This document shows, one piece after another, positions 9,260 to 57,023 of a stretch of DNA of 64,000 nt. The notes under the pieces were generated by a model. The model was not told where the DNA came from. It searched no databases and saw nothing but the letters and a program-made list of their open reading frames with translations. Numbering within the stretch: the stretch's first letter is position 1; each line of letters opens with the position of its first letter. The stretch is from IMG/VR virus record IMGVR_UViG_3300027976_000006, positions 1 to 64,000 of that record, one strand, 5' to 3'. A program made the translations under genes and the position numbers. The stretch is from a virus.

Positions 9260-9436
9260 GATAGACATACCTGTTAGGGGTAGTTTGTAAGGCAAACGAA
9301 AGATCTCTGCAGGGGTCTGGATACTTACAAACTACACTAACTCAAATCAATGAGTTAGTTAGCGTCCCTGTATGTCTATCTCTCAGCAGACTTCCAAACC
9401 CAGCTGCCCTTCGGGGTAGTTGGGTTTATTTTTTTT
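9260..9436 (+). ncRNA. Candidate structured non-coding RNA (multi-stem junction) with its own promoter and terminator
   Basis: Stems gatagacatac/gtatgtctatc (11 bp), gtagtttgtaag/cttacaaactac (12 bp), ctaactca/tgagttag (8 bp) and agatctc/ggggtct; no ORF; promoter-like gcgtcataat upstream. Confidence 0.65.
9396..9436 (+). terminator. Intrinsic terminator (identical copy at 10028-10068)
   Basis: aaacccagctgccc-ttcg-gggtagttgggttt followed by a T-tract. Confidence 0.9.
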
Positions 9437-9503: not shown

Positions 9504-9568
9504 AGCAGAGGACACCCCCTTGGGTGTAATGCACTGTGGCTTCTTAGCCACACCGGTTCCAAGTCCGG
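9504..9568 (+). ncRNA. Twister-like self-cleaving ribozyme (circularly permuted) in a 5' leader
   Basis: GCA-GA-GGA-[CACCC cctt GGGTG]-TAA-TGC-AC-[TGTGGC ttctta GCCACA]-[CCGG TTCCAAGT CCGG]. P1, P2, P3, P4 and both pseudoknots (TCC/GGA, AC/GT) fit the twister fold. Confidence 0.75.
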
Positions 9569-32152: not shown

Positions 32153-32395
32153 ATGATAAGAAAAGTAACCATATGTCACCCAGATACTATGTCTGTGTCT
32201 TGGTCTAAGTCTTGGCCTGGGTCTGGGTCTGCGTCTCGGTTTGGGTCTTGGTCTGGGTCTTGGTCTGGGTCTTGGCCTGGGTCTGGGCCTTGGTCTGGGT
32301 CTTGGTCTGGGTCTTGGTTTTGGTCTTGGTCTTGGTCTCGGTCTCGGTTTGGGCCTGTGTCTTGGTCTAAAAACAAAACTAGGAGTGCTAAATGA
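32153..32395 (+). CDS. Array unit 1: MIRKVT leader, (Ser-Trp/Gly/Arg)n, TRSAK tail (80 aa)
   Basis: AGGAG RBS, ATGA coupling. Confidence 0.65.
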   Translation: MIRKVTICHPDTMSVSWSKSWPGSGSASRFGSWSGSWSGSWPGSGPWSGSWSGSWFWSWSWSRSRFGPVSWSKNKTRSAK

Positions 32396-32565
32396 TAAGA
32401 AAAGTAACCGTATGTCACCCAGCTATGTCTGTGTCTTGGTCTGGGTCTTGGTCTCGGTCTCGGTCTGCGTCTTGGCCTGGGTCTTGGCCTGGGTTTGGGT
32501 CTTGGTCTGAGTCTCGGTTTGGGTCTTGGTCTTGGGCTGAAAACAAAACCAGAAGTGCTAAATGA
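32392..32565 (+). CDS. Array unit 2 (57 aa; below the ORF-track cutoff)
   Basis: MIRKVTVCHPAMSVSWSGSWSRSRSASWPG...ENKTRSAK; ATGA overlaps at both ends. Confidence 0.65.
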   Translation: MIRKVTVCHPAMSVSWSGSWSRSRSASWPGSWPGFGSWSESRFGSWSWAENKTRSAK

Positions 32566-32774
32566 TAAGAAAAGTAACCTTATGTAACCAGGATGCTCTG
32601 TCTTGGTCTGGGTCTCGGTCTAGGTCTGGGTCTGGGTCTTGGTCTGGGTCTTGGCCTGGGTCTGGGCCTGGGTCTGGGTCTTGGTCTGGGTCTTGGTTTT
32701 GGTCTTGGTCTTGGACTAGGTCTCGGTTTGGGTCTATGTCTTGGGCTAAAAGCAAAACCAGGAGTGCTAAATGA
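32562..32774 (+). CDS. Array unit 3 (70 aa)
   Basis: Same leader and tail; ATGA coupling. Confidence 0.65.
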   Translation: MIRKVTLCNQDALSWSGSRSRSGSGSWSGSWPGSGPGSGSWSGSWFWSWSWTRSRFGSMSWAKSKTRSAK

Positions 32775-32989
32775 TAAGAAAAGTAACCATATGCCACCCA
32801 GATACTATGTCTTGGTCTTGGTCTAAGTCTTGGCCTGGGTCTGGGTCTGCGTCTCGGTTTGGGTCTTGGTCTGGGTCTTGGTCTGGGTCTTGGCCTGTGT
32901 CTCGGCCTGGGTCTCGGTCTCGGTTTAGGTCTGGGTCTTGGTCTGAGTCTCGGTTTGGGTCTAAAAACGAAACCAGGAGTGCTAAATGA
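32771..32989 (+). CDS. Array unit 4 (72 aa)
   Basis: Same leader and tail; ATGA coupling. Confidence 0.65.
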   Translation: MIRKVTICHPDTMSWSWSKSWPGSGSASRFGSWSGSWSGSWPVSRPGSRSRFRSGSWSESRFGSKNETRSAK

Positions 32990-33237
32990 TAAGAAAAGTA
33001 ACCTTATGTAACCAAGATACTATGTCTGGGTCTTGGCCTGGGTCTTGGCCTGTGTCTAGGTCTGGGTCTGGGTTTTGGTCTTGGTCTATATCTATGTCTT
33101 GGTCTGGGTCTTGGCCTGTGTCTCGGCCTGGGTCTCGGTCTCGGTTTAGGTCTGGGTCTTGGTCTGGGTCTAGGTTGGGGTCTCAGTCTTGGTCTGACAT
33201 ATATCTACCGACAGGAGTAACTTATGATGAAGATTAA
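32986..33237 (+). CDS. Array unit 5 (83 aa, unique tail)
   Basis: Same leader; the tail contains the AGGAG RBS of the next gene. Confidence 0.65.
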   Translation: MIRKVTLCNQDTMSGSWPGSWPVSRSGSGFWSWSISMSWSGSWPVSRPGSRSRFRSGSWSGSRLGSQSWSDIYLPTGVTYDED

Positions 33238-39855: not shown

Positions 39856-40968
39856 GTGAAAATATTAGTGTCAAGTGATTTACATCTGAGTAATCGTATT
39901 TGGAATCATCGTACCATCGAAGGTGACAGTTACTGGTCTTGGAAACAGATTGTGTCTCAGGCCATTAAACATAAGGTAGAAGCCGTAATATTGGCTGGAG
40001 ATATACTAGACAAACAAGTAAATTCGTCTGAGCCAATACAGCACCTTTTAGCAGGAGTAAGCGAATTAGCCAAAAACAATATACCTGTGTATTATACGCA
40101 AGGGCAGCACGAGTTTCAAGAAACTCCTTGGTTAAAGGCTGCCGCTGGAGCCGTTTGGTTACACGAGCAAACGGTGCAGTTTCGTAATTGGCAAATTGCG
40201 GGTTGTGACTACCAGAACAACGCAGAAAAATTGTTGCAATTTTTAAAAAGCGAAAAAGCATTTACTTCTCAAATACTCGTGTGTCATCAAGTGTGGGAAG
40301 ACTTCATGGGGGAGCTGGCTAAACCACAAGGGTGTTTTGGGGATATTCCATTTAATGTGAAGTATCTTATCACTGGTGATTACCACAAAAATCTTATACA
40401 CAAGCACGGTAATCTAACCGTATTAAGCCCCGGCAGCACACATATGCGCAACATTACAGAACCGGAGGATAAAGCAATTTTTTTAATTGAAGACGATCCC
40501 CTTGCTTTTGAACACCAATTAACAATAAAAACTTTGCCCTTGTTAACCAGAAGAAAAATAGTTGTATCCACAATTGATTGTTTTCACAAATGGGATGTCG
40601 TAAAAAGTGCAACAGCTGCTTTGATGAGGAAAGCTGCTGAATATGCGACAGCAGCTAACTTACCTGCTGAATTAATTATGCCTTTAATTTATCTAGTATA
40701 CACACCGGCTGACACGGAGCTAGTGGATAGGTTTAAACAAACTTTTGAACAAAAAGGGCATTTGTTTTTTAAGCAAATAGAATCGAAACAAGCAGAAGAT
40801 CAAGCACAAGAACAAATTCTTGCTACGGACCGCATAAGTATGCTGCAGTGCGTAGACAACTATGTAAACAAAGCGGAACAACCGTTAGTTTACGACTTGA
40901 TTGTAACTTTGTTGCAAAGTCCAGATTCTAACCAAGCATTGAAGTTATGGGTTAATTCTAACATTTAA
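39856..40968 (+). CDS. sbcD: SbcD/Mre11-like metallophosphoesterase nuclease
   Basis: SDLH, AGDILD, GQHE, CHQ, GDYH, PGS. Confidence 0.9.
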   Translation: MKILVSSDLHLSNRIWNHRTIEGDSYWSWKQIVSQAIKHKVEAVILAGDILDKQVNSSEPIQHLLAGVSELAKNNIPVYYTQGQHEFQETPWLKAAAGAVWLHEQTVQFRNWQIAGCDYQNNAEKLLQFLKSEKAFTSQILVCHQVWEDFMGELAKPQGCFGDIPFNVKYLITGDYHKNLIHKHGNLTVLSPGSTHMRNITEPEDKAIFLIEDDPLAFEHQLTIKTLPLLTRRKIVVSTIDCFHKWDVVKSATAALMRKAAEYATAANLPAELIMPLIYLVYTPADTELVDRFKQTFEQKGHLFFKQIESKQAEDQAQEQILATDRISMLQCVDNYVNKAEQPLVYDLIVTLLQSPDSNQALKLWVNSNI

Positions 40969-40978
40969 GGAGTTACAC

Positions 40979-43108
40979 GTGTACATAGAACAAGTGGAGT
41001 TAAAAAACATTGGGCCTCACCTCAGTTTAACGGTTAAGTTTGATTGTGGCTTAGTGGGTATCGTTGGAGCCAACGGGGCTGGTAAATCTACATTAGTTAA
41101 TGCAATTTACGCTGCACTAACTAACGACTTTAGCCGGCTTGGAAGTGTTAAGACTGACATTATTACGAACGGGGTTAAAGGAGAAAGCTACATACGCGTA
41201 GAGGGAAAACATCAAAATCAATCTTTTGTTATAACTAGGTGGCTTCATCCCAATAAGAATGAGTTTAAAATCGGGAAAGCCGTATTTGAAAAAACAACAG
41301 ATGTTAATGAAGCGGTAATGACTTACCTGAATATTAGCAAAACTGTAATTGATAAGTATGTATTCGTAGCACAATGGGAAATGTTTAATTTTCTAGACCA
41401 AACGGCGAGCGAGCGGGCAAAGACCTTTCAGTACTTGTGTGGTACGGAGTCAGCTTCTAGCCTGCACAAAACCTGTTTAGACTATGTGACGAAGCAGCAA
41501 GGAATTGAGGTAATAGACAACCGCAACGAACTGGAAGAGTCATTAAACGAAGCCCAAGTGGCCATAGCACGGCATCGCGCAACAGGGCAAGCAGCTAAAG
41601 TGCATATAATGGCAGAAGAAAAGTTAGAAGCGGGAAAAAAGTTGTTAGCGAGTTACGGGTTAGGCAAAGAAGCTCAAACCCAATTGGTTAAGACTATTAT
41701 AAAAATTGAGGCATTGGAAAACTGTTTAGCTCGGTTTCAAAAAAGTCAATCTAAAGTTAAATTTGTCCGGCGCAAAGACTGGCAAGCCAAATTTAAAGGC
41801 AGGGTAATTGCTGCCCAGCAATTGTTAACTAGATTTGAAGATCATAGACTTGCACACATAGAATTTTTAGAAAAAGCTAAAGAGTACAAAGTCTATGCGC
41901 ATGGAGTTGAAATCCTACAAAGGCGTAAACCGTTAGCTCCCCCGCATTATGTTGGTTTAGAAGAACAAAAACTTCTTACTAAACAGCGGCATGGACTTGA
42001 GTTTCAATTAAAACAAATTGTAAGTTTGGATTCGCATGAACGCTATTGCACGCAGTGTCACCAAGCGATACCGGAAGAACACATCGCAAACATTAAAGCT
42101 AGTAATGAAAAAAGAAAAAGCGATCTTGCTCACGTTGTGCACATTTTAGACATTTGTGAATCGCACGATACCCGCATGTCTGAGTATTTAGTCGGGATGA
42201 AAGCATGCGAGAATATTTGTGCTAGGGTGCAAAATGAATTAACTGTTGCAAAAGAAACGATGGATTTGATTGTTGCAGATTTAAAAGGATTTAATGCAGA
42301 ACACAAAGACGAGGCAACAAGATTAAGAGCTAAGAATTCTATTGTAGAACAGCAATTAGTTCATTACGGTGCAGAGGTCAATAAAGAAGAACAACGCATT
42401 CTAGGCCTACAGGGTGAGCTTAAAAGCAACTTAGAGCAGCAAGTTGTGTTACAACAACAAGTAAATAGGATGCCGAGTGTTACGAAAGTAGCAGGTATGA
42501 CTGCAGAATTAGGTAAACACGAAGAATCTTTGCTTGTATGGCAGCAAGCATTAGGTGGTCATCAAGAAGCCAAACGGTCTAAGTTCCGCATTTTAGCGAA
42601 TTTAGAGCAGCTTACAGCTAGGCTAGCAGCGCACGAAAAAACTCGTAAATTGTTAGACATTGTTAGTACAGCCGGTGATGTGTTTCATTGGAACAACTTA
42701 CCTAAAATGGTTTCTCAGGCTAACCTTCAACTTTTAGTTGGAGACATTAATTCTAATCTGCAGTTGTTTAGCAACCCGTTTTTTGTGGAAGCGGATGAAG
42801 ATTTAACCTTTAAAGTTTTCTTCGCAGGGCAAGAAGCAGTTAAAGCGAAGCAGCTTAGTGGCGGGCAAAAAGTTATTCTTTCTATAGCTTTTCGTGCTGC
42901 TTTAGACCGAGTTTTTGGGCATAATATTGGTATGATGTTCTTAGATGAACCGACTTCGGGCCTAGATTCGGACAACGTGAGTTTCTTTAAAGAAGCATTA
43001 CAGCGCTTAACACAGAAAGTCGGAAAAGAACATCAGCTGATTGTAATTACGCACGTTCAAGAACTAGGAAAAGTTTTTGACCAGTTGATCGAGATAAAAA
43101 AAGGATAA
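40979..43108 (+). CDS. sbcC: SbcC/Rad50-like SMC ATPase
   Basis: GANGAGKS, Q-loop, CTQC Zn hook, LSGGQ signature, LDEPT, ITH. Confidence 0.92.
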   Translation: MYIEQVELKNIGPHLSLTVKFDCGLVGIVGANGAGKSTLVNAIYAALTNDFSRLGSVKTDIITNGVKGESYIRVEGKHQNQSFVITRWLHPNKNEFKIGKAVFEKTTDVNEAVMTYLNISKTVIDKYVFVAQWEMFNFLDQTASERAKTFQYLCGTESASSLHKTCLDYVTKQQGIEVIDNRNELEESLNEAQVAIARHRATGQAAKVHIMAEEKLEAGKKLLASYGLGKEAQTQLVKTIIKIEALENCLARFQKSQSKVKFVRRKDWQAKFKGRVIAAQQLLTRFEDHRLAHIEFLEKAKEYKVYAHGVEILQRRKPLAPPHYVGLEEQKLLTKQRHGLEFQLKQIVSLDSHERYCTQCHQAIPEEHIANIKASNEKRKSDLAHVVHILDICESHDTRMSEYLVGMKACENICARVQNELTVAKETMDLIVADLKGFNAEHKDEATRLRAKNSIVEQQLVHYGAEVNKEEQRILGLQGELKSNLEQQVVLQQQVNRMPSVTKVAGMTAELGKHEESLLVWQQALGGHQEAKRSKFRILANLEQLTARLAAHEKTRKLLDIVSTAGDVFHWNNLPKMVSQANLQLLVGDINSNLQLFSNPFFVEADEDLTFKVFFAGQEAVKAKQLSGGQKVILSIAFRAALDRVFGHNIGMMFLDEPTSGLDSDNVSFFKEALQRLTQKVGKEHQLIVITHVQELGKVFDQLIEIKKG

Positions 43109-43111
43109 GTT

Positions 43112-43999
43112 TTGTTACAGCAATTTAATACTTGTTTTCATGTGGATTGTGATGGAACTACTTGGGTTACTACTCCAGAAGGTATACCTACGCAAGTGCT
43201 TGATACATATCGGCCTAGTAACTTAGTGGCTACTATTTATCGTGTTGTAGGTATACCTCGTAATTACAAACTTATTATTTCTTTATATTTGTCTTTAGTT
43301 AACAAAGAAATAAAAGGTAGTTTGCTGGTAGGGCATCCTCGAATATGCCATCGGTATCAAGACTCAAGTTTACAATTGTTAAATTGCATTTCTGTAATTA
43401 ATCCGCACGACAATTTACCCCATACTTGGCACAGCGTAGACAGTACAAGTTATCGTAATTTTTTGTTACTGCAGCTTAAGCAAGATCCGCTTTGCGACTC
43501 ATCTGCAAAATTGCGGGATAGGTTACAACACTGTTATTTTCTTCATATTACTTACCCATTTTGGCGGTTTTTAAAAATAGACACTTGTGTTGATTTAGTA
43601 TTAGGAATAATTTCTGCAATAGCTGACCCTCGTTGGTACTTTAATGTAGATCATCCGAACAGATTAACACGGCTAGACGATTATTTCGGTTTATTGGTTT
43701 TTGCAAAGTTTTGGAATTTGTACGAAAGAAAAGAAATAAAAAAATTCAGCAAGGAAGAAAGTCGAACATATTTATTAGCGGAAGCAATAAAAGCACTACC
43801 TTCCGATAGCCCAATTTTGTTGGATTTAACTTGTGATAGAGCCAATATGCAAGACATGCGGCGTGCTTGTCGAATGCTACTACACTTTATTGTTCGCAAC
43901 TGGTTGGCGGGCAGTAGGCAGCACGCTGAGTTTGACCCGCATATGTTTTTTCAAAACAAGGCAGTTAAAGATAGTTTTTTAAAGCAATTTGGAGAATAG
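43112..43999 (+). CDS. Hypothetical protein with an IS110-transposase/Nop-like motif
   Basis: IISAIADPRWY...RLTRLDDYFGL resembles the IS110 Transposase_20 pattern (AEIGD..RF....L.AY.GL); no DEDD RuvC motif is evident. Confidence 0.45.
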   Translation: MLQQFNTCFHVDCDGTTWVTTPEGIPTQVLDTYRPSNLVATIYRVVGIPRNYKLIISLYLSLVNKEIKGSLLVGHPRICHRYQDSSLQLLNCISVINPHDNLPHTWHSVDSTSYRNFLLLQLKQDPLCDSSAKLRDRLQHCYFLHITYPFWRFLKIDTCVDLVLGIISAIADPRWYFNVDHPNRLTRLDDYFGLLVFAKFWNLYERKEIKKFSKEESRTYLLAEAIKALPSDSPILLDLTCDRANMQDMRRACRMLLHFIVRNWLAGSRQHAEFDPHMFFQNKAVKDSFLKQFGE

Positions 44000-44001
44000 T
44001 T

Positions 44002-44499
44002 ATGCGCGAATTGTCTGTTCGTATCAGGTTTACAACCCCGAGTTTAGGTAATGAAAAAGAAAAAGAAACAGGTCGTTTTCAGTTTCAAAGAAGCCACGGA
44101 AAAGACGGTAAAATTTTATTTTTAGCTACCTGGCATCATTCTAATATGAAGTTGGCCGCAGAAATGCTAGGGAGGCATCAAGAATTAGTTAAACAGATTT
44201 GTTGGGACATAGGGCTTGATGCTGAGATTCGAGATAAATGTTTAACTCGTTGTTTTTACCAGAAATCTGTAAATGGGCGGGAGCGCTGGTCGTTGCATGA
44301 ATCAATTATGGCCAACCAGACGGTTGTGATTAACTGTGTAGTGCCCTCTGCAATTGACGAACAAGATTTTTGGACGTTGATGCAAATTGCGGGTAAGTAT
44401 AAAGGTTTGTCTCCGTGGCAGCCGGGCAAATACGGGCACTATGAGGTTGTAAGCATACAGCAACGAAGGCATACTCAAACAAACATTTTAGACGATTAA
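44002..44499 (+). CDS. Stand-alone RAMP (Cas7/Csm3-like RRM fold) protein
   Basis: Beta1 VRIRFTTPSLG, F.R..DGKI.F.ATW..MK.AA, thumb ..HESI, and C-terminal G-rich loop AGKYKGLSPWQPGKYGHYEV. Confidence 0.6.
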   Translation: MRELSVRIRFTTPSLGNEKEKETGRFQFQRSHGKDGKILFLATWHHSNMKLAAEMLGRHQELVKQICWDIGLDAEIRDKCLTRCFYQKSVNGRERWSLHESIMANQTVVINCVVPSAIDEQDFWTLMQIAGKYKGLSPWQPGKYGHYEVVSIQQRRHTQTNILDD

Positions 44500-44500
44500 T

Positions 44501-44572
44501 AAAACCACCGGCTAGGTGCGGAATTCCAGCCGGTGGCGACGTGTAGCGGGTGCGATTGCTTCGCCAACCCAC
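44501..44572 (-). ncRNA. Candidate ~70-nt small RNA convergent with the RAMP-like gene
   Basis: Minus strand: TTGCAT-16 bp-TAGAAT promoter (44606-44579); hairpin GUGGGU..GCGA/UCGC.ACCCGC; terminator CCACCGGCU/AGCCGGUGG plus UUUU. Confidence 0.55.
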
Positions 44573-44623
44573 AGTCGCATTCTACTTAATCAATACATAA
44601 ATGCAACACAATAAGGAGTTAAT

Positions 44624-46132
44624 GTGCAAGAAAAAATTGTTACGTTGTACAAAAATGGGAATACTATTTACATAGACCCAACTAGCGATTACATGTTTGA
44701 ATTGCTTAAACCAGTTTTAAGCTTTACCGAACGCAAATGTTATTTCGGTTACGAGGCAACACAACGCAAGCAGCAAAATTTAGCAGTTTTTGAATTACAG
44801 AATCATTCTCTTTTGGATGTCGATCACAAGCAGCGTATTGTAACTTTTTATGGCTTTTTTGCTTTAATTAGACAGACGCTTACTAAAGCGGGTTACACCG
44901 TGAAGTTTAAAGATCTTTCCCCCATGGCGGCTGAAAAACTAGAACCGCGATGGAAAAACATTAGTTCGTACAAATTACGGGCAAACCAAAATGAATTTTT
45001 GCAAAAGATTTTAGCTAATCGTTGTGGTAGATTTGATTGTCCCCCGGGCTTCGGTAAATCTTTTATGATTGGTTTAATCGCTGCATTGCTGCCCAAGGCA
45101 ACAATTGATGTGGTCACGAGACGAGTATCCGTGCTGCGCGACAGAATTTATCCAGAGCTGTGTCAGATGGTAGGCGATGTAGGAATTGTCGGGGGCAGCA
45201 AAAATGTAAGAAACAAACGGGTGATGTGTTACACTGTCGGTTCCCTTGGGCATAGTCCTGCTACTTCGGACTTTCTGATCGGGGACGAGTGTCACGAACT
45301 CTCTGCGGACAAAGCGGCTGGAGAATTAGTTCGGTGGCAAAACAGTCGAAATTTCGGGTTATCCGCTAGCCATGATCTTCGTTGGGATGGCAAAGATTTT
45401 AGAAATCTCGGTTTGTTCGGTCCCGTCATCTTTAAAGTAAATTACGCGCAAGCACAATCTGCAAATATGGTAGTCCCCATCCATGTGAAATGGACATCTG
45501 TAGTAATGGACCAAGACCCTTGCATGGATGCCGCAGATATACAGAAGAAACGACAAGGTATCTGGTGTAATGATTATCGGAATCGACGAATAGCCGAAGA
45601 TGCCCAGCGTTACGATGATAACACTCAAGTTTTAATTACGGTAGAGACTATAGAGCACGCATTAAACCTAAAAAAACAATTACCTAATTTTACTTTAGTG
45701 TACATGGAAAACGGGTTAAGCAAAAAAGATATAGAATATTACGCCCGCCGTGGGTTTTGCAAAGAAGATGAACCTTTAATGGATTTAGACCGCAGACAAA
45801 AATTAACTCAAGATTTTGAAAAAGGCGTATTAAAAAAAGTAATTTGTACCACAGTATGGAATGTTGGTGTATCGTTTAATAGCTTGGCCGTTTTAATCCG
45901 AGCTGACGGCGGTGGTAGCCCTATTAACGACATTCAAATCCCAGGCCGTGTGTCTAGAATTTCTGCAGACAAGCCTTACGGGCAAATCCACGATTATCTG
46001 GACCAGTTTAACTATACATTTAAAACTCGAGCAAAAAATCGTAGTACTTCGTATGCGCTTAATAACTGGCAACAAGATTTTCCTTCTGCTGGCTTGCAAA
46101 AGGAATACCACAGAATAACTCCAGCATTTTAG
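44624..46132 (+). CDS. Superfamily 2 DNA helicase (UvsW/XPB-like)
   Basis: PPGFGKS, DECH, GLSAS, QIPGRVSR. Confidence 0.9.
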   Translation: MQEKIVTLYKNGNTIYIDPTSDYMFELLKPVLSFTERKCYFGYEATQRKQQNLAVFELQNHSLLDVDHKQRIVTFYGFFALIRQTLTKAGYTVKFKDLSPMAAEKLEPRWKNISSYKLRANQNEFLQKILANRCGRFDCPPGFGKSFMIGLIAALLPKATIDVVTRRVSVLRDRIYPELCQMVGDVGIVGGSKNVRNKRVMCYTVGSLGHSPATSDFLIGDECHELSADKAAGELVRWQNSRNFGLSASHDLRWDGKDFRNLGLFGPVIFKVNYAQAQSANMVVPIHVKWTSVVMDQDPCMDAADIQKKRQGIWCNDYRNRRIAEDAQRYDDNTQVLITVETIEHALNLKKQLPNFTLVYMENGLSKKDIEYYARRGFCKEDEPLMDLDRRQKLTQDFEKGVLKKVICTTVWNVGVSFNSLAVLIRADGGGSPINDIQIPGRVSRISADKPYGQIHDYLDQFNYTFKTRAKNRSTSYALNNWQQDFPSAGLQKEYHRITPAF

Positions 46133-46171: not shown

Positions 46172-46945
46172 ATGGAAAACAAGAATTTTAAGTTTAGTCG
46201 CCCTCCTATCCCAAATTTAAACTCGCGGCCTTCTGCTGATAGTTTTAACGAGCTTCCGGCAGAGGTACGGCTTTTTAAAGATACCTACATACAGGAAAGA
46301 CGAGTTTTGGAACGTTTTAGACAGGGTAGCAGTGTGAGTGTTTACCAACCTGCTTCAAGTTTAGATGGGAAATCTAAATTTGATTCGTTGGAAGAAAGAA
46401 AAACTACAAATCAATGGCAAGCTGTGCATAAAAAGCTAGGGCTGCTTCAGCATTTAAAGCCAACAAATTATGTACGCATTCTTTTTTATATCTTGAGAGG
46501 CAGCGCACTGACCGTACCTACTTTGAATCAGTTAGCTGCCCCTAAAACAATTGAAATGGTTCTTGATAGTTTTCAAAAAATAGAAGATGATTTACGCTGG
46601 CAGTTCATTGCAGAGAGCCAGCGAATCAAAACGGCTATCGTAATTTACCAAAAAGGCGATGGTTACTCGTTGAGCTTGGCTGTTTACTATGCACTGGCGG
46701 ACAATAGGCTAGAATTGTCTCCGTTATTTAAATATTGTATTGCTACTTCTACCTGCGAGCGTCTTCTGCAAAGCGATAAAAAAGACCCACACATTAAAAA
46801 GTTAAATAAAATAGCGAAACAATTTGAATTTTTGGCGGCGATGGATTACACTCTTTTTCCCCAACTTTATACTGCGGTGCTGGGGAAGATAATTCCAGCG
46901 GATTTTTGTGTAGCGGCGGCTGGTATAGTATCGGCTGCTCGGTGA
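46172..46945 (+). CDS. Hypothetical replication-region protein
   Basis: GAGGGGG RBS; lies between the two helicases. Confidence 0.7.
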   Translation: MENKNFKFSRPPIPNLNSRPSADSFNELPAEVRLFKDTYIQERRVLERFRQGSSVSVYQPASSLDGKSKFDSLEERKTTNQWQAVHKKLGLLQHLKPTNYVRILFYILRGSALTVPTLNQLAAPKTIEMVLDSFQKIEDDLRWQFIAESQRIKTAIVIYQKGDGYSLSLAVYYALADNRLELSPLFKYCIATSTCERLLQSDKKDPHIKKLNKIAKQFEFLAAMDYTLFPQLYTAVLGKIIPADFCVAAAGIVSAAR

Positions 46946-48666: not shown

Positions 48667-49749
48667 ATGGACAATGCTGAAAAGAACGCATTAAATCGTG
48701 CTTTGTTTCGTAGGTGTAAAGCCGTTTTTGGTAATGTGCGTATTGCACATTCCGGAGAAAAACAATTACGAAAATCAAGTGTTGATTTGATCACGGGAAA
48801 ACCGATAGAAGTGATTACACATTCTGGTGAATACTATGCCGTATGCTGCCCTTTTTGTAACGATACTCGCTTTCGTTGTTACATAAATCACAGATACGGC
48901 ACAGATAATAGTTGGGGTCGCCCTCAATTAAATCTTGCTATCTGTTTTAACGGAGGTTGTCCCCTCTCGCTTAAGGAGGCGGAGACTTATCAAAAGTTAG
49001 AACAAATGCTGGTAGGTCATCACTTACTAGATTTACGCAAGGTTCAAATAAAGGAAGGAAAACCAGTTGATTTAACTAAAATAAGAACAAGTTGGCCGGG
49101 TAAAGTTACTCGAATTGATAAACTGCCTTCCAGTCACGAAGCCAACCTGTATCTAGAAAGTCGAGGTTTTGACCCCGAGAAGATTGGTAGGTTTTACAAT
49201 GTGCATTGGTGTTACGAAAGCGATAAGTACATTTGTAGAAATCGATTAATTATTCCCATTTATCACGACATGCAGATGGTTGGTTGGCAAGCTAGGGCTG
49301 CTTTTGAAACAGATTGGAAAAAATCTAGTTTGCCTAAGTATTACACAGCGCCGGGAACTCCAAAACGAAATATTCTTTACAACTTGGGAAATGCAGAGCA
49401 GTACGAAGTAGGTATTATTGTGGAAGGTGTAACGGATGTTTGGCGTGTAGGGCCGCAAGCTGTATGTACTCTCGGTGCTAGCTTAACGGCAGGGCAACAA
49501 ACTTTGTTTAGGCAACGTTTTAAAGATTATGCGGGAGTATTGGTTTTTGACCCGGATGTTAAAGACAAACTCGCATTAAAAGTAAAAGAGATAGAAACAG
49601 ATTTGAACGAACATTTAAAATCCGGATTTTGCAGCGTGCAACTTCCTACCGGTACTGACCCTGGTTCCTTAGACCGAGCAATGCTTCGTGAGTATATTAC
49701 AAAGCAGGCAAAGGATAAGGGCGTAATTATTTCTTGGAGGAAAAGGTAG
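48667..49749 (+). CDS. dnaG: DNA primase (Zn finger plus TOPRIM)
   Basis: CPFC..C...C, YLESRG, RLIIPI, PKY, IVEGVTD, FDPD, DPG. Confidence 0.88.
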   Translation: MDNAEKNALNRALFRRCKAVFGNVRIAHSGEKQLRKSSVDLITGKPIEVITHSGEYYAVCCPFCNDTRFRCYINHRYGTDNSWGRPQLNLAICFNGGCPLSLKEAETYQKLEQMLVGHHLLDLRKVQIKEGKPVDLTKIRTSWPGKVTRIDKLPSSHEANLYLESRGFDPEKIGRFYNVHWCYESDKYICRNRLIIPIYHDMQMVGWQARAAFETDWKKSSLPKYYTAPGTPKRNILYNLGNAEQYEVGIIVEGVTDVWRVGPQAVCTLGASLTAGQQTLFRQRFKDYAGVLVFDPDVKDKLALKVKEIETDLNEHLKSGFCSVQLPTGTDPGSLDRAMLREYITKQAKDKGVIISWRKR

Positions 49750-49751
49750 AA

Positions 49752-52700
49752 ATGGTACATCGCAAGATAAAGATAAAAGGAAATACAATTGCTTCCGTTA
49801 CTTCAATTTCCTCCGTGGCTGTCGAGAAAGTACACAAACAGCGGTTATACGCGGTGCAAAAAAATGGAGCAATATACCCTTTAGACGCCCCTGGGTTACC
49901 TGCGTTACCGCCTAATTCTGCATTTCTTCGTCATGCTTTAGCATTAGGCGACATAGAGTCTAAACTGGTAGAAGAAACAAAAGAAAACGCAGAGGGTAAA
50001 AAAATCAAAGAACGCCGGTTAATCTACGGCGATGAGTTAATGCAACTGGTTCAGTCGGCGCTACGAATTACGCCTTTCACTCTAGGTGTCGAGATCGGAC
50101 CTCACTATTACAAAGAAGCAGAGTTTGTCCTTGGTCATTTGCAGGGGGCAGCCACTGCAACTGGACCAGTGCCCGCCGACGTAATGATTATCGGGCGTAA
50201 TCCTTGGGTAGAAGAAGTCAAAGCGGCAAGGTGTATGGAGGGGGCAGACGGCCAACTGCTAATCGAAACATTTCGTAAATTAAAAGCACTCGATTTAGCT
50301 AAATTCTATTTAACAAATTTAGTTAAATTTAGACCTCCAGATTGGAAGGTTAATTTAAAAGCGGTGTGGATAAAAGATTGTATGCATTTGCTGTATCAAG
50401 AAATAAAGATCGTACAGCCTAAATACATTCTTTGTTTAGGGGCAGACGTCAGTAAAGCTTTGCTTGGGGGTAAAGCGGGTGTAACCGAAATGGAAGGTAG
50501 GATAGAAAAGATAAAGTACAATACTGCGTTCATAGGTAGAGACCAAGAACAGTGTTGGAAAGAAGCACAAGTTATGACTGTAGTACATCCACGCCAAGTT
50601 ATTCGAGACCAGTCGGCAGGAAGGCAGCTGGAGAATGGAATAGCCCGATTCGTGGCTTTAACAAAAGGAGTTGTAACCGGTTCTTCTGAAACAATAGATC
50701 ACAGGGTAGTCGATAACCACTGGGATCTGTTGCAGCAGCTTATCAGCGTCGAGTACGACACAGACAAAAGAGATAATGTAATTGCAGTTGATGCAGAATG
50801 GCACGGTAAGCACCCAATTAATAAAAATGCTTATATGCGAACGATGCAGCTATCTTGGTGTGAAAAGAAAGCACTTGGCATTAAGTTTCACGAGGCGGGC
50901 GGGGAAATGGCAGTTGGCTTCGCTTCAGGTATGCCTAGGCAGCTACTCCAAAAAACGCTAAAACTTTTAAATGTTTTCTTTCTTGGTGGTGTCTTTAAAT
51001 ACAAAGATGCAGAAGAAGTTAAAGAAATTAAGTTTAGGCGCAAACGGGTTATTGGTCATTTCTTTAACGCAGATTTGGAGTGGTTGTTAGATTACGGTAT
51101 TAACATCCAAGATTGTTTTTCTTGCCGGTTGTATGACTACGAGATGAAACCAGAAAATGTCGATAAGAAGTTGTTCAAGGCGTACCAAAGCGAAGGGTTT
51201 AAAGCGGAAGAAATTGTGCCGGCGTGGTATCGTACTAAGTTTGAAGGAGGGGCAGACACAGGGTTAATGGCCCACGCTATTGAAGAAACAGCCAGTTATA
51301 AACTGGAAACTTTGGCGATGCGCTACACGGCAGCTCCAAGATACGATCGGGAGCTGCAGCGGTGGAAAGTATCTTACTGTAAGATTCAAGGGATAACGAA
51401 TTCCGATTTAGAGGGGTATGGCGAATGCCCTGACGATATCTTGTTGCCTTATGGTATGTACGATGCCGATGTTACCTTGCGCCTTTTTTACAGATTGTCA
51501 GTATTATTGGACGAGGATTACGAGGGCAATAACTGTCGGGAAGCTTTTTGGGAGTCTCAAATTGCAACTCCTGCTGTGCTGGAAATACATCGTAATGGTA
51601 TTACCGTAGACAAAGAACGAATTGATTTTTTAACTAAAAGTTTTATGCAGGCTAAAGCTGCGCTAGAAATTAACTTGCGTGAAAAAATTCGCTGGCCTAC
51701 CTTCAATCTCAGGTCTACGCAGCATGTTCGAGAATTACTTTACGGGCACGCACTCAATGGGCATAAAGATAAAAAAACCGGAGAAATGCTTAGGCTACGC
51801 CCGCCCGATGCCGTCAGTTTAAATCTTGAACCATTATTTGACACAGGCAAACCACCTAAAGCATGGGGTGAGATTAAAAGGGGAGGAAGAATGAATGAAC
51901 ATTCCCCCTCTACTAACAAATTAATTTTATCTTTGCTGGCCCAGTCGGCGGCTACAGAGACTAAAGCTAAATTAATAAATCAATTAAGAGACTATCGTTT
52001 TTTAGACCAAGTGCTTAAAACGGTACTTCATCCGCCTGACGAGGATGGTCCCACCGGTGAATCAATCTACAACGAGGAGGGTAATTTAGAATATTCTGAC
52101 GGGCTTGCTTCTCTTTGCTGTGACGATGGCAAAGTGCGTACTCATGTTTACCAAACCAAGGAAACCGGAAGGTGGTCCAGTGCTCGCCCCAACTTGCAAA
52201 ATATCAGCAAACAGCGAGACCCGGACTACAAGAGATTGCTTGGGGAGGAAAACTATAAATACAGTTTGCGCAGTATTTTAAAAGCTTCACCTGGTCATGT
52301 GCTTGTGGAAGCGGATTATGTTGGGGCGGAACTATTTGGCATGGCGGTGATGGCTGGTGACGAGAATATGATTAAGCATGCGTTAAGAAACCAGCTACCT
52401 GAGTCCCACCCGGAATACTACGATATACACAGCAATGTGGCATGCTATGCGTTTAAACTAGCTTGTCCTCCAACAAAAAGTGGGTTAGCTGCTATAGGTA
52501 AAAAAAATCTTAGAATGGTGGCCAAATCTGTGATTTTTGGGATCGCGTACGGTAGGGGAGCTAATGCGATTGCGATAGCGGCAAAAGAGCAGGGCATTGA
52601 TATTAGCTTAGAGGAAGCCCGCAAACTTATTGATGCAATTTTTACCATGTATCCAAGGCTTCATCCATTTTTTTATGAATGTGTTGCGCGTGCTACTGGG

Positions 52701-53231
52701 GAATACATTGACCCAGTAACTGGCAGCAAAGTTGCAGCCCGCTATTTGTGTAATTGTTATGGTAGATTTCGGCGCTTCCCGGCTTCAAATAACGATACAG
52801 CATTAGCTGCGGAATTTGGAAGGCAGGCTATGAATTATCCAATTCAATCAATGATTGCCTCTGCAGTTAGCCGTGCGTTGGCCCATATTCACACCTATAA
52901 AGCGAAGCAGCTGTGTGCTGGTGTGGACATGTTTAAAATTCTGCTGCAGATTCACGATGCTGTACTTCTTGAAGTTCCTTACCGGTATGTTAAGCATGTA
53001 TGTGAATGGGTGCTACCGAAGTTTATGCGTGATGCGGTTCCTATCTATCCTTCTAGTTTAGATGGCGTGCCAACTGGTGCTGGTCCGTATTATCTAGGCA
53101 TCGAAGTGGAGGTGATGAAACACTGGGGGGAAGGGCTAAAAGAAAGTGAAGCGCTTGAGTTAGATCTTCCCACCGGGATAGGCGGAGTGGAAAGCTGTGT
53201 TGTAAATTACAGCAAGGCTAATAAAATATAA
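49752..53231 (+). CDS. polA: Family A DNA polymerase with N-terminal uracil-DNA-glycosylase-like domain and 3'-5' exonuclease
   Basis: UDG-like: VMIIG.NP, YLTNLVK.RPP, EI..VQPK.I.CLGA, HP. Exonuclease: DAE, YD.D. Polymerase: TGR.SS..PNLQNI, ADY..AE, R..AKS..FG..YG, QIHD. Confidence 0.95.
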   Translation: MVHRKIKIKGNTIASVTSISSVAVEKVHKQRLYAVQKNGAIYPLDAPGLPALPPNSAFLRHALALGDIESKLVEETKENAEGKKIKERRLIYGDELMQLVQSALRITPFTLGVEIGPHYYKEAEFVLGHLQGAATATGPVPADVMIIGRNPWVEEVKAARCMEGADGQLLIETFRKLKALDLAKFYLTNLVKFRPPDWKVNLKAVWIKDCMHLLYQEIKIVQPKYILCLGADVSKALLGGKAGVTEMEGRIEKIKYNTAFIGRDQEQCWKEAQVMTVVHPRQVIRDQSAGRQLENGIARFVALTKGVVTGSSETIDHRVVDNHWDLLQQLISVEYDTDKRDNVIAVDAEWHGKHPINKNAYMRTMQLSWCEKKALGIKFHEAGGEMAVGFASGMPRQLLQKTLKLLNVFFLGGVFKYKDAEEVKEIKFRRKRVIGHFFNADLEWLLDYGINIQDCFSCRLYDYEMKPENVDKKLFKAYQSEGFKAEEIVPAWYRTKFEGGADTGLMAHAIEETASYKLETLAMRYTAAPRYDRELQRWKVSYCKIQGITNSDLEGYGECPDDILLPYGMYDADVTLRLFYRLSVLLDEDYEGNNCREAFWESQIATPAVLEIHRNGITVDKERIDFLTKSFMQAKAALEINLREKIRWPTFNLRSTQHVRELLYGHALNGHKDKKTGEMLRLRPPDAVSLNLEPLFDTGKPPKAWGEIKRGGRMNEHSPSTNKLILSLLAQSAATETKAKLINQLRDYRFLDQVLKTVLHPPDEDGPTGESIYNEEGNLEYSDGLASLCCDDGKVRTHVYQTKETGRWSSARPNLQNISKQRDPDYKRLLGEENYKYSLRSILKASPGHVLVEADYVGAELFGMAVMAGDENMIKHALRNQLPESHPEYYDIHSNVACYAFKLACPPTKSGLAAIGKKNLRMVAKSVIFGIAYGRGANAIAIAAKEQGIDISLEEARKLIDAIFTMYPRLHPFFYECVARATGEYIDPVTGSKVAARYLCNCYGRFRRFPASNNDTALAAEFGRQAMNYPIQSMIASAVSRALAHIHTYKAKQLCAGVDMFKILLQIHDAVLLEVPYRYVKHVCEWVLPKFMRDAVPIYPSSLDGVPTGAGPYYLGIEVEVMKHWGEGLKESEALELDLPTGIGGVESCVVNYSKANKI

Positions 53232-55538: not shown

Positions 55539-55610
55539 TTGGCAACAATGTTAATTTAATTAAGAGTGGAGGTAATATTCCACTCTTATGTTTTAAAGGA
55601 AGGAATAATT

Positions 55611-57023
55611 ATGCTAGACGATACGGACGACTTGGCTGAATCAATTCTAAATCCACCCGAAAAAGCTAAAAAAAATTTAAAAAACGAGGCAAAAGAAAAA
55701 CCGGTTGAAACTACAGAACCTAAGAAAAAAACCGCAAGCCTATCCGGAGGAGTTAAGCTAACTAACAAGACTAAAAGTAGTGTACGCTCTCGTTGGTCAG
55801 AGGAAAATAGCGGGGAAAGCCGTGACTCTATGATGATCAAGTTACGATCAAATGCCAGAGATAAATTTGGAGCGGATCGAGTGTTCGTCACGCGAGAAGA
55901 CTTGGGTAAGCTTGCAATTGGTATTCCAACTCCTTCATTGGCGTTTGAATATTTAGTCGCAAATGATGTATTTCCTTTAGCTAGCGTCGTAATGCTTGCA
56001 GGCAGCTGGGGCAGCTGTAAGTCGGCGTTGTCCTATGAGTTTTTTCGGTGGTTTTACGAGCAGAAAGGAATGGCAATACACATTGACACAGAAGATAAAT
56101 TCGATGCCGATTTTGCATGCGATATTATGCGGGTAGGCCAGAATGTAGTGCCATTCATATCCAATCGGGCGAATTCCCTAGAAAACATGCAAAAAATTCT
56201 TACATTTCATTTGGGAGAAATGCAGTCGCTGCTCTTGGGTACGGCGGCTGACCCGGGCCCGGGTAAAACTAGACCAGTTTGTTTTTGTATTGACAGCCTT
56301 GCGGGTGCAACCTCGGAGGAAATTCAAGAAAAAATTATTAAAGAAGGTAGTGCGGGCCGAACTCATCCTGTTAATGCTTTAAAAAATACTATTTATTTAT
56401 CCGGCATTAAAAAGGAATTTGAAAATTGGCCCTTTACTTTATTGATCGTAAATCATCTAAAAGAAAAGTTAGACGACAGAGGTAACGCGCATCAGTACAC
56501 ATTAGGGGGTCAAAGTTATAACTTTCACGAAAGTTTAGAGTTGAGAAATTCGATCTGGAGAACAAAGTTTAAAAATCAACAATTTGAAGGATTAGGAGTT
56601 AAAATACAATGTGCTAAAAATTCATTTGGGCCCACGGGGCGTTCGCTTAAGACGAGGTTCCTGTGGTGGATTGAAGATGACCCTATAACAGGAAGTCCTC
56701 GCGATGTGTTTTTGTGGGATTGGAATTGGGCACTCTGCACTTTACTGAATGAAATGGATGGCATGCACAAAAATAGGTTGACCGACCGTGACTTAACCAT
56801 TAAATGCAAATCACCAGCAGCTGATGTCGAATGTCTGGCAAACTTTAGAGCGGTGGGGATGGGTAAAGATGAATATCTGCCTTTTCAGGAAGTCGGACAG
56901 CTTATCCAAGACAATCCTAAAGTGTGCGACAGCATTAGAGATGCCTTAAACATAAAACGGAGATATCGGCTCGATAAGCCATACGATACAATTGTCGAAG
57001 AGCACGTAAAGTCCTTGGAGTAA
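55611..57023 (+). CDS. recA: RecA/UvsX-like recombinase
   Basis: IPT.S, GSWGSCKS (Walker A), IDTE, IDSL, VNHL, GG, KN. Confidence 0.85.
   Translation: MLDDTDDLAESILNPPEKAKKNLKNEAKEKPVETTEPKKKTASLSGGVKLTNKTKSSVRSRWSEENSGESRDSMMIKLRSNARDKFGADRVFVTREDLGKLAIGIPTPSLAFEYLVANDVFPLASVVMLAGSWGSCKSALSYEFFRWFYEQKGMAIHIDTEDKFDADFACDIMRVGQNVVPFISNRANSLENMQKILTFHLGEMQSLLLGTAADPGPGKTRPVCFCIDSLAGATSEEIQEKIIKEGSAGRTHPVNALKNTIYLSGIKKEFENWPFTLLIVNHLKEKLDDRGNAHQYTLGGQSYNFHESLELRNSIWRTKFKNQQFEGLGVKIQCAKNSFGPTGRSLKTRFLWWIEDDPITGSPRDVFLWDWNWALCTLLNEMDGMHKNRLTDRDLTIKCKSPAADVECLANFRAVGMGKDEYLPFQEVGQLIQDNPKVCDSIRDALNIKRRYRLDKPYDTIVEEHVKSLE

Follow-up and report, generated by a model that had tools for sequence, protein, structure and literature searches.

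The gene at positions 44002-44499 (plus strand) of the window encodes a minimal, Vipr/Cas7-like RAMP for which structural modelling strongly supports the guide-RNA-binding fold of CRISPR Cas7 and phage Vipr proteins, and it lies within a phage replication-recombination operon. By the window we mean the whole stretch of DNA that was analysed, 64,000 nucleotides long and spanning positions 1 to 64,000 of the viral record IMGVR_UViG_3300027976_000006, which in full measures 156,975 bp, has a GC content of 44% and is estimated to be 76% complete. RAMPs are known as the guide-RNA carriers of defence and conflict systems, that is, of CRISPR class 1 and, recently, of phage VIPR. Here, a Vipr-like RAMP without the repeat-reading residues and without an array behaves as a housekeeping gene of phage replication and recombination, and a fold known for binding guide RNA seems to have been recruited to a different function.

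The reading frame starts with ATG and codes for 165 amino acids with a pI of 8.9; it was characterised through the ORF itself, its homologues, their alignment and an AF2 model. The RAMP is a real gene, with 98 homologous clusters at 90% identity (E 1e-32 to 1e-96). The family comprises 149 representatives at 50% identity, and the contigs that carry homologues reach 235 kb; these phages occur in lake and marine samples. No name is attached to any of the family clusters found. An alignment of 37 sequences (A1) contains 17 invariant columns, namely G16, H45, N48, G57, W68, D69, H99, E100, C112, P115, L126, G131, G135, S137, P138, G145 and R155. Homologues at 23-90% identity are conserved in phages whose GC contents differ widely and which therefore probably infect different hosts.

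Sequence searches give little indication of what this family is. Profile searches of Pfam, NCBIfam and PADLOC returned no match for the protein, the PF03787 profile found nothing in the 157-kb record at E <= 1, and PDB sequence searches with either the protein or the family profile as query were equally without match. One weak C-terminal match was obtained in PHROGs (phrog_4652, E 0.002). A tblastn search of 50,697 phage records, SUSP1 included, gave no match. Fused or longer forms of the RAMP were looked for and none was found, which is weak evidence. By the Pfam, PDB sequence and PF03787 searches, the protein is similar in sequence to no Cas7 subtype.

The structure is more telling. The AF2 model built from A1 (pLDDT 92.3, pTM 0.83) is a single RRM with the ferredoxin-like core β1-α1-β2-β3-α2-β4. 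Strand β1 (residues 2-10) is followed by helix α1 (42-56), strand β2 (~67-73) and a thumb hairpin at 81-102, formed by strands 81-87 and 94-102. The C-terminal part consists of β3 (107-114), α2 (120-133), a Gly-rich loop (134-146) and β4 (147-154). This loop, which joins α2 to β4, is the predicted G-loop, and G131, G135 and G145 are invariant in A1. The element order agrees with the original prediction, which was made from the sequence alone and had described a first strand ending in TP..G, a thumb ending in HE and a C-terminal helix with a Gly-rich loop.

Structural comparisons place the model among the RAMPs. Foldseek against the PDB returned 63 matches at E <= 0.001, and all matches listed are CRISPR RAMPs, including type VII Cas7 (8yhe/9j9e; E 6e-6, TM 0.62), Cmr4, Csm3 and type IV Csf2. 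With VIA-align, the top Z-scores are 11.4, 11.3 and 10.8 with 146-157 residues aligned; the best 30 rows hold CRISPR RAMPs only, and the first unrelated fold, of the RNase P Pop5 type, appears at Z 6.9. The nearest named cluster in the ESM Atlas is that of the PF03787 RAMPs (TM 0.70), and the best match in BFVD is a phage 'RAMP superfamily protein' (E 3e-7). The earlier proposal of a RAMP/Cas7-type RRM with G-loop and thumb is thus upheld by AF2, Foldseek, VIA-align and the ESM Atlas. RRM core, thumb and G-loop are common to the phage protein and the CRISPR Cas7 group (Csm3, Cmr4, type VII Cas7, Csf2 and the Cas7 domains of gRAMP/Cas7-11), whose solved structures align with the model at Z 9-11.4 over 140-157 of its 165 residues. 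However, the matched Cas7-group chains are ~40-120 residues longer, whereas the phage protein carries no extra domains. Equally, the context of the CRISPR proteins (an array, Cas5/Cas6/Cas10/Cas11 and a PF03787 sequence match) is missing here, and no counterpart of the catalytic Asp of Csm3/Cmr4 was identified.

A closer comparison is offered by Vipr, the minimal phage RAMP of VIPR systems, which polymerises on vrRNAs of 9-16 YNNGG units (bioRxiv 10.64898/2026.04.26.720920, 10.64898/2026.04.26.720927). According to these preprints, the GGY of the repeat is read by H17, R138, D177, W178 and R179 in the SUSP1 protein, with D177 reading G1. The phage stand-alone RAMPs with short-period repeat RNAs that the original prediction had mentioned are these VIPR systems, and a profile link to Vipr was indeed found. 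We located the SUSP1 Vipr gene in NC_028808 (L099:28474-29058, minus strand), where plain YNNGG tracts lie in both flanking gaps. Aligned by hhalign with the SUSP1-clade Vipr alignment (A8), A1 gave a probability of 70% (E 3.9e-5), and 209 RAMP-family against 120 Vipr-relative sequences gave 94.5% (E 8e-8); both matches span 39-40 C-terminal columns only, covering helix 2, the G-loop and strand 4. In this region the two families have in common the motif AG-x3-G-x3-W-x-P-x2-G-x-F/Y-x-V. Their first strands are similar as well (M-x-x-h-x-h-x-I-x-x-T-x-P-x-L). Both are phage-borne minimal single-RRM RAMPs of ~165-195 aa with thumb and G-loop, and both occur outside a CRISPR context.

The residues with which Vipr reads GGY are, however, not kept. 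D177 aligns with the invariant P138, and W178 with W139, which 24 of the 37 sequences retain. For R138 the counterpart is the invariant E100, in an alignment of low confidence, and H17 was placed on N17 by eye. The surroundings differ too. VIPR is a small two-gene interference locus with a (YNNGG)n vrRNA, whereas the RAMP is fixed inside a replication-recombination operon, in a record without a GGYNN array (the form scanned for), and its adjacent RNA is a single conserved hairpin-type sRNA on the opposite strand. The best reading of these profile alignments is that the RAMP family is a distant relative of Vipr which has neither the repeat RNA nor the repeat-reading residues.

The operon begins with an Mre11/SbcD-like nuclease (39856-40968, +; Pfam Metallophos), which heads the conserved block, and a Rad50/SbcC-like ATPase (40979-43108, +; Pfam SMC_N/AAA_23/SbcC_Walker_B), both assigned by domain and synteny. 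Next come the TasR/IS110-like gene X (43112-43999, +), whose stop codon lies 2 nt before the RAMP start, the RAMP itself and an XPB-like SF2 helicase of 502 aa (44624-46132, +). The helicase is recognised by Pfam Helicase_C/ResIII, phrog_16 and synteny, with a PDB match to XPBII at E 2e-5 and a weak NCBIfam match to XPB. Between it and a DnaB-like helicase lies Y, a conserved protein of 257 aa (46172-46945, +) without a match in Pfam, PHROG, PADLOC, NCBIfam or the Atlas; related loci have an ORF of 250-280 aa at this place. Further downstream are a family-A DNA polymerase (PolA) of 1165 aa (49734-53231, +), with ~26% identity to the nearest isolate polymerases, which belong to T5-like phages, and a UvsX-like recombinase (55566-57023, +; phrog_97, E 9e-14). 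Relatives of this PolA have an N-terminal UDG-family domain (Pfam UDG and DNA_pol_A in L002/L004).

Synteny was assessed in 25 viral contigs and 54 metagenome contigs, together with several identity-based look-ups. The order Mre11, an optional gene of ~220 aa, Rad50, X (270-320 aa), RAMP, SF2 helicase (~500 aa), Y (~260 aa), DnaB-like helicase, primase and PolA with its UDG domain recurs in more than 60 loci of differing GC content, including some with as little as 23-36% identity. The place of the RAMP is constant in these loci, which answers the synteny comparison suggested at the outset. The SF2 helicase lies directly downstream of the RAMP in every RAMP-bearing locus examined. Conversely, among 34 loci anchored on the helicase, the RAMP is directly upstream in 30 and X is present in 33. 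Exceptions exist on both sides. In the lineage of IMGVR_UViG_3300024348_000001 and its relatives (L120-L123), the TasR-like gene directly precedes the helicase and the RAMP is absent; no RAMP gene was found anywhere in the 186-kb record, which is 86% complete, so that this lineage can dispense with it. The converse case is a single contig (L014/L108) with a RAMP and no X. Because of this RAMP-less lineage and this X-less contig, the RAMP is a near-core gene that is neither indispensable nor an obligate partner of X. In one distant relative, the SF2 helicase beside the RAMP (L031:1129-3666) measures 845 aa and contains a LAGLIDADG_3 domain, which is probably an intein or a homing endonuclease insertion.

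The upstream neighbour X, 295 aa long, combines an RNase H/RuvC-like N-terminal domain with a Nop-like helical C-terminal domain (AF2 pLDDT 89.3). Its best structural match is TIGR-TasR 9mty, with Z 12.2 over 237 residues that cover both domains, and Foldseek recovers the same structure at E 7e-3 with a probability of 0.99. The Nop domain of TasH (Z 8.7), IS110-family recombinases and, for residues 1-110, RuvC/YqgF-type folds come next. In the X alignment (A3) no D or E of the RuvC-like domain is invariant, and since no acidic residue is invariant, the domain is probably inactive. One divergent Tas branch has been described as compact, array-less TasR proteins in densely packed viral genomes, with the source of their guides left open (bioRxiv 10.64898/2026.09.09.750476). 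X resembles this branch (Faure et al. 2025, PMC12045711; bioRxiv 10.64898/2026.09.09.750476) in its RuvC-like plus Nop-like architecture and is likened to it by fold and context, as its viral genome is densely packed and has no array. The paper on the branch mentions no RAMP, helicase or replication context. TIGR-Tas systems have a Nop-domain protein beside a TIGR array and, in their nuclease forms, an active RuvC; for X no such array was found, and its RuvC-like domain has no invariant acidic residue.

The RAMP was initially described as standing alone. This holds with respect to arrays and cas genes; it does not hold for its immediate surroundings, where X lies 2 nt upstream and a candidate small RNA gene lies tail-to-tail with it. 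Throughout the subclade with at least 60% identity, every locus conserves the 124-bp gap that follows the RAMP. On the minus strand of this gap we find a candidate sRNA gene of ~72 nt (44500-44572) with putative ends. The interval 44501-44572 had been put forward as a possible RNA ligand; it does hold a conserved candidate small RNA gene, and the strand is minus. A σ70-like promoter at 44579-44606 (-) consists of TTGCAT (44606-44601) and TAGAAT (44584-44579) separated by 16 nt. From 5' to 3', a spacer of ~6 nt after the promoter is followed by a 5' hairpin, a GCUACAC linker, a long hairpin and a U-run. The arms of the putative terminator hairpin lie at 44505-44513 and 44528-44536 (-), ahead of the U-run at 44504-44501, and its loop (UUCGCCAC) is conserved, more so than the stem.

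Several lines of comparative evidence argue for this element. In an alignment of 31 sequences (A4), the plus strand shows (nearly) invariant A-T-T-N-T-A columns and, at a distance of 16-17 nt, equally constant G-C-A-A columns, which reads on the minus strand as an invariant TANAAT with TTGC 16-17 nt upstream. A consensus σ70/terminator scanner did not call the sRNA signals in the window; the -35 hexamer matches the consensus at 3 of 6 positions. The terminator helix has 11 pairs, of which 10 show compensatory changes, and 97.8% of the cells are paired, as compared with 34-48% in slid controls; none of 500 shuffles reached the observed covariation. Where the plus strand would have A-C or C-A mismatches, the minus strand forms G-U pairs, which favours the latter. 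With a covariance model (R1), each locus yields one copy, scoring 41-90 bits, and the 157-kb genome a single one; four further lineages have weaker matches at the same place. A search of the intergenic region against Rfam gave no sRNA family. Most of the distant, GC-richer lineages have a minus-strand TTGNNN-17-TANNNT at the same place (for example TTGCAA/TTGAAA-17-TATAGT) together with a strong hairpin and a U-run, and 9 of 19 of these distant elements have a CACACC motif in common (shuffled mean 0.8, maximum 4). In the RAMP-bearing L021, L029, L033, L074 and L083 the element is absent and has no room, as the RAMP and helicase genes abut. For the 5' part of the sRNA, trans targets were sought at gene starts, and the best energy equalled that of shuffles.

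We propose, tentatively and at somewhat below an even chance, that the RAMP is a domesticated, non-programmable, Vipr-like RNA-binding factor of replication and recombination, with the adjacent sRNA as its likeliest ligand. In this model, the RAMP would have become fixed as a near-core replication-recombination gene in a clade of uncultured large phages (~150-235 kb). Its surface, made up of helix 1, the G-loop and the thumb, would hold single-stranded RNA, with no programmable guide array involved. As its ligand, the ~72-nt sRNA encoded on the other strand just past the 3' end of the gene would be likeliest. Protein and RNA would make up a fixed RNP, which the presumably nuclease-dead TasR-like neighbour might or might not join, and this RNP would act together with the XPB-like helicase on intermediates of replication or recombination, or in the regulation of these. 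The fold, the Vipr profile link, the lack of arrays, the synteny and the conserved, covarying RNA element rest on the analyses above; that the protein binds RNA, that the sRNA is the RNA bound and that the helicase takes part are inferred. The absence of the sRNA from several RAMP-bearing lineages, and of the RAMP from one lineage, speaks against this model. So do the lack of a short-period repeat in the sRNA on which a multi-subunit RAMP filament could be seated, the promoter that the σ70 scanner missed, and the trans-target scan, in which nothing rose above the shuffles; being cis-antisense, the sRNA might also do no more than regulate the RAMP/helicase transcript.

The main rival, which we regard as rather unlikely, does without RNA altogether. 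Here, the RAMP would be an RNA-independent handler of single-stranded DNA (SSB-like, a mediator or a helicase accessory) in recombination-dependent replication of the UvsX/Mre11-Rad50 type, and the sRNA an unrelated cis-antisense regulator. The core syntenic place of the RAMP among Mre11, Rad50, the SF2 helicase, DnaB, primase, PolA and the UvsX-like recombinase would suit this role, as would the pI and the good conservation of the family, which is unlike that of arms-race genes. The same lineages that have a RAMP and no sRNA count in its favour, and no SSB of the PF00436 family was found in the record. The lack of a Pfam SSB match is, however, not the absence of an SSB, as the record is 76% complete and PF00436 was the sole SSB family searched. 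Neighbour X, too, has an RNA-binding (Nop-like) fold. Moreover, to our knowledge every characterised RAMP binds RNA.

A more far-reaching form of the RNA-binding reading would join the TasR-like protein, the RAMP, the 72-nt antisense RNA and the XPB-like helicase into one fixed-guide RNP machine that serves the phage's own replication or recombination. We consider this unlikely. Such a machine might act, for example, in RNA-directed R-loop formation or in origin or fork handling; in that case, core genome maintenance would have borrowed its guide-RNA folds from conflict systems, or these folds would be ancestral to such systems. If the RAMP, the TasR-like protein and the sRNA do assemble into an RNP, DNA replication or repair would involve an RNA-protein machine that is not programmable, which would also bear on the origin of RAMP-based immunity.

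The relationship with Vipr raises the question of whether the RAMP serves true VIPR-type interphage interference, with a guide that escapes recognition and the helicase as its vap gene. Such a guide might take the form of one degenerate vrRNA or of the neighbouring sRNA, or an array might lie in the 24% of the genome that the record lacks. Beside the Vipr profile link, it speaks for this possibility that VIPR types with a single vrRNA, with non-YNNGG pentanucleotide repeats and with helicase or nuclease vap genes have been described (bioRxiv 10.64898/2026.04.26.720920, 10.64898/2026.04.26.720927). The SF2 helicase and the TasR-like protein adjoin the RAMP as vap genes might, but they are genes of the replication operon, and the position of the RAMP in this operon is fixed across hosts.

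Array searches also argue against interference. The whole 156,975 bp contain no interspaced repeats of the CRISPR type, and neither there nor in the window is there another cas gene recognisable by sequence, as had been stated for the window from the outset. No TIGR-type array (alternating 8-12-nt repeats with 9-nt spacers) was found in the 157-kb record. Scanning both strands of the 157 kb for GGYNN runs revealed none of at least five units and no window with 7 of 9 GGY-NN units. Two runs of four units exist in the 157 kb, both distant from the RAMP gene. The earlier observation that no short-period repeat lies beside the gene is therefore correct and extends, for GGYNN, to the entire record. 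The sRNA, when read for 5-nt periodicity, shows none; its sequence is conserved rather than hypervariable. The contact residues of Vipr are replaced (D177 by Pro, H17 by Asn and, at low confidence, R138 by Glu). Since the RAMP has a fixed place in the operon and is highly conserved, and since the contact residues are replaced and arrays are lacking, VIPR-type interference appears improbable, and a decoy function still more so. As an anti-CRISPR decoy, the RAMP would mimic Cas7 and thereby enter or poison class 1 effector complexes of the host, which we consider highly improbable: orphan viral cas genes do act as Acrs, for example AcrIB3/AcrIB4 (bioRxiv 10.1101/2023.06.24.545427), and the RAMP has a Cas7-like fold, but it is a fixed part of a replication operon, not of a variable cluster of anti-defence genes, is conserved at 23-90% identity across GC-diverse phages, and resembles no Cas7 subtype that it could mimic.

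Two further RNA candidates had been named in the original prediction. For 9260-9436, no link to the RAMP could be made. A terminator-like hairpin with a T-run lies at ~9399-9436, ~100 nt upstream of an intergenic match to the type-P5 twister ribozyme (window 9504-9568, +; 38.1 bits against an Rfam gathering score of 37.6, E 2e-4). The window contains no tRNA. The other candidate, the hexamer transcripts of 32.1-33.2 kb, coincides with five tandem, translationally coupled mini-ORFs (window 32153-33237, +; MIRKVT..., rich in Ser, Trp and Gly) that are built of (NCTNGG)n hexamers with constant junctions. As an RNA partner for the whole family this array was rejected: it occurs in the two closest relatives (G001, G002) only and is missing from the RAMP-bearing G003 (94% complete), G004 and G005 (98% complete), so that its distribution does not track that of the RAMP family.

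The candidates for CRISPR- or TIGR-like arrays turned out to be coding repeats, namely collagen-like sequences at the contig ends and a 36-nt repeat at 100.7 kb. The latter is a near-perfect tandem repeat of 36 nt x 5.2 (96% matches) at genome positions 100742-100929 (+), inside an ORF of 250 aa. The two ends of the record (genome 1-532 and 156611-156975) share one collagen-like coding repeat of 9/18/27 nt (CCACAAGGN). A single repeat-rich gene was probably split in the assembly, and the record may be close to circular.
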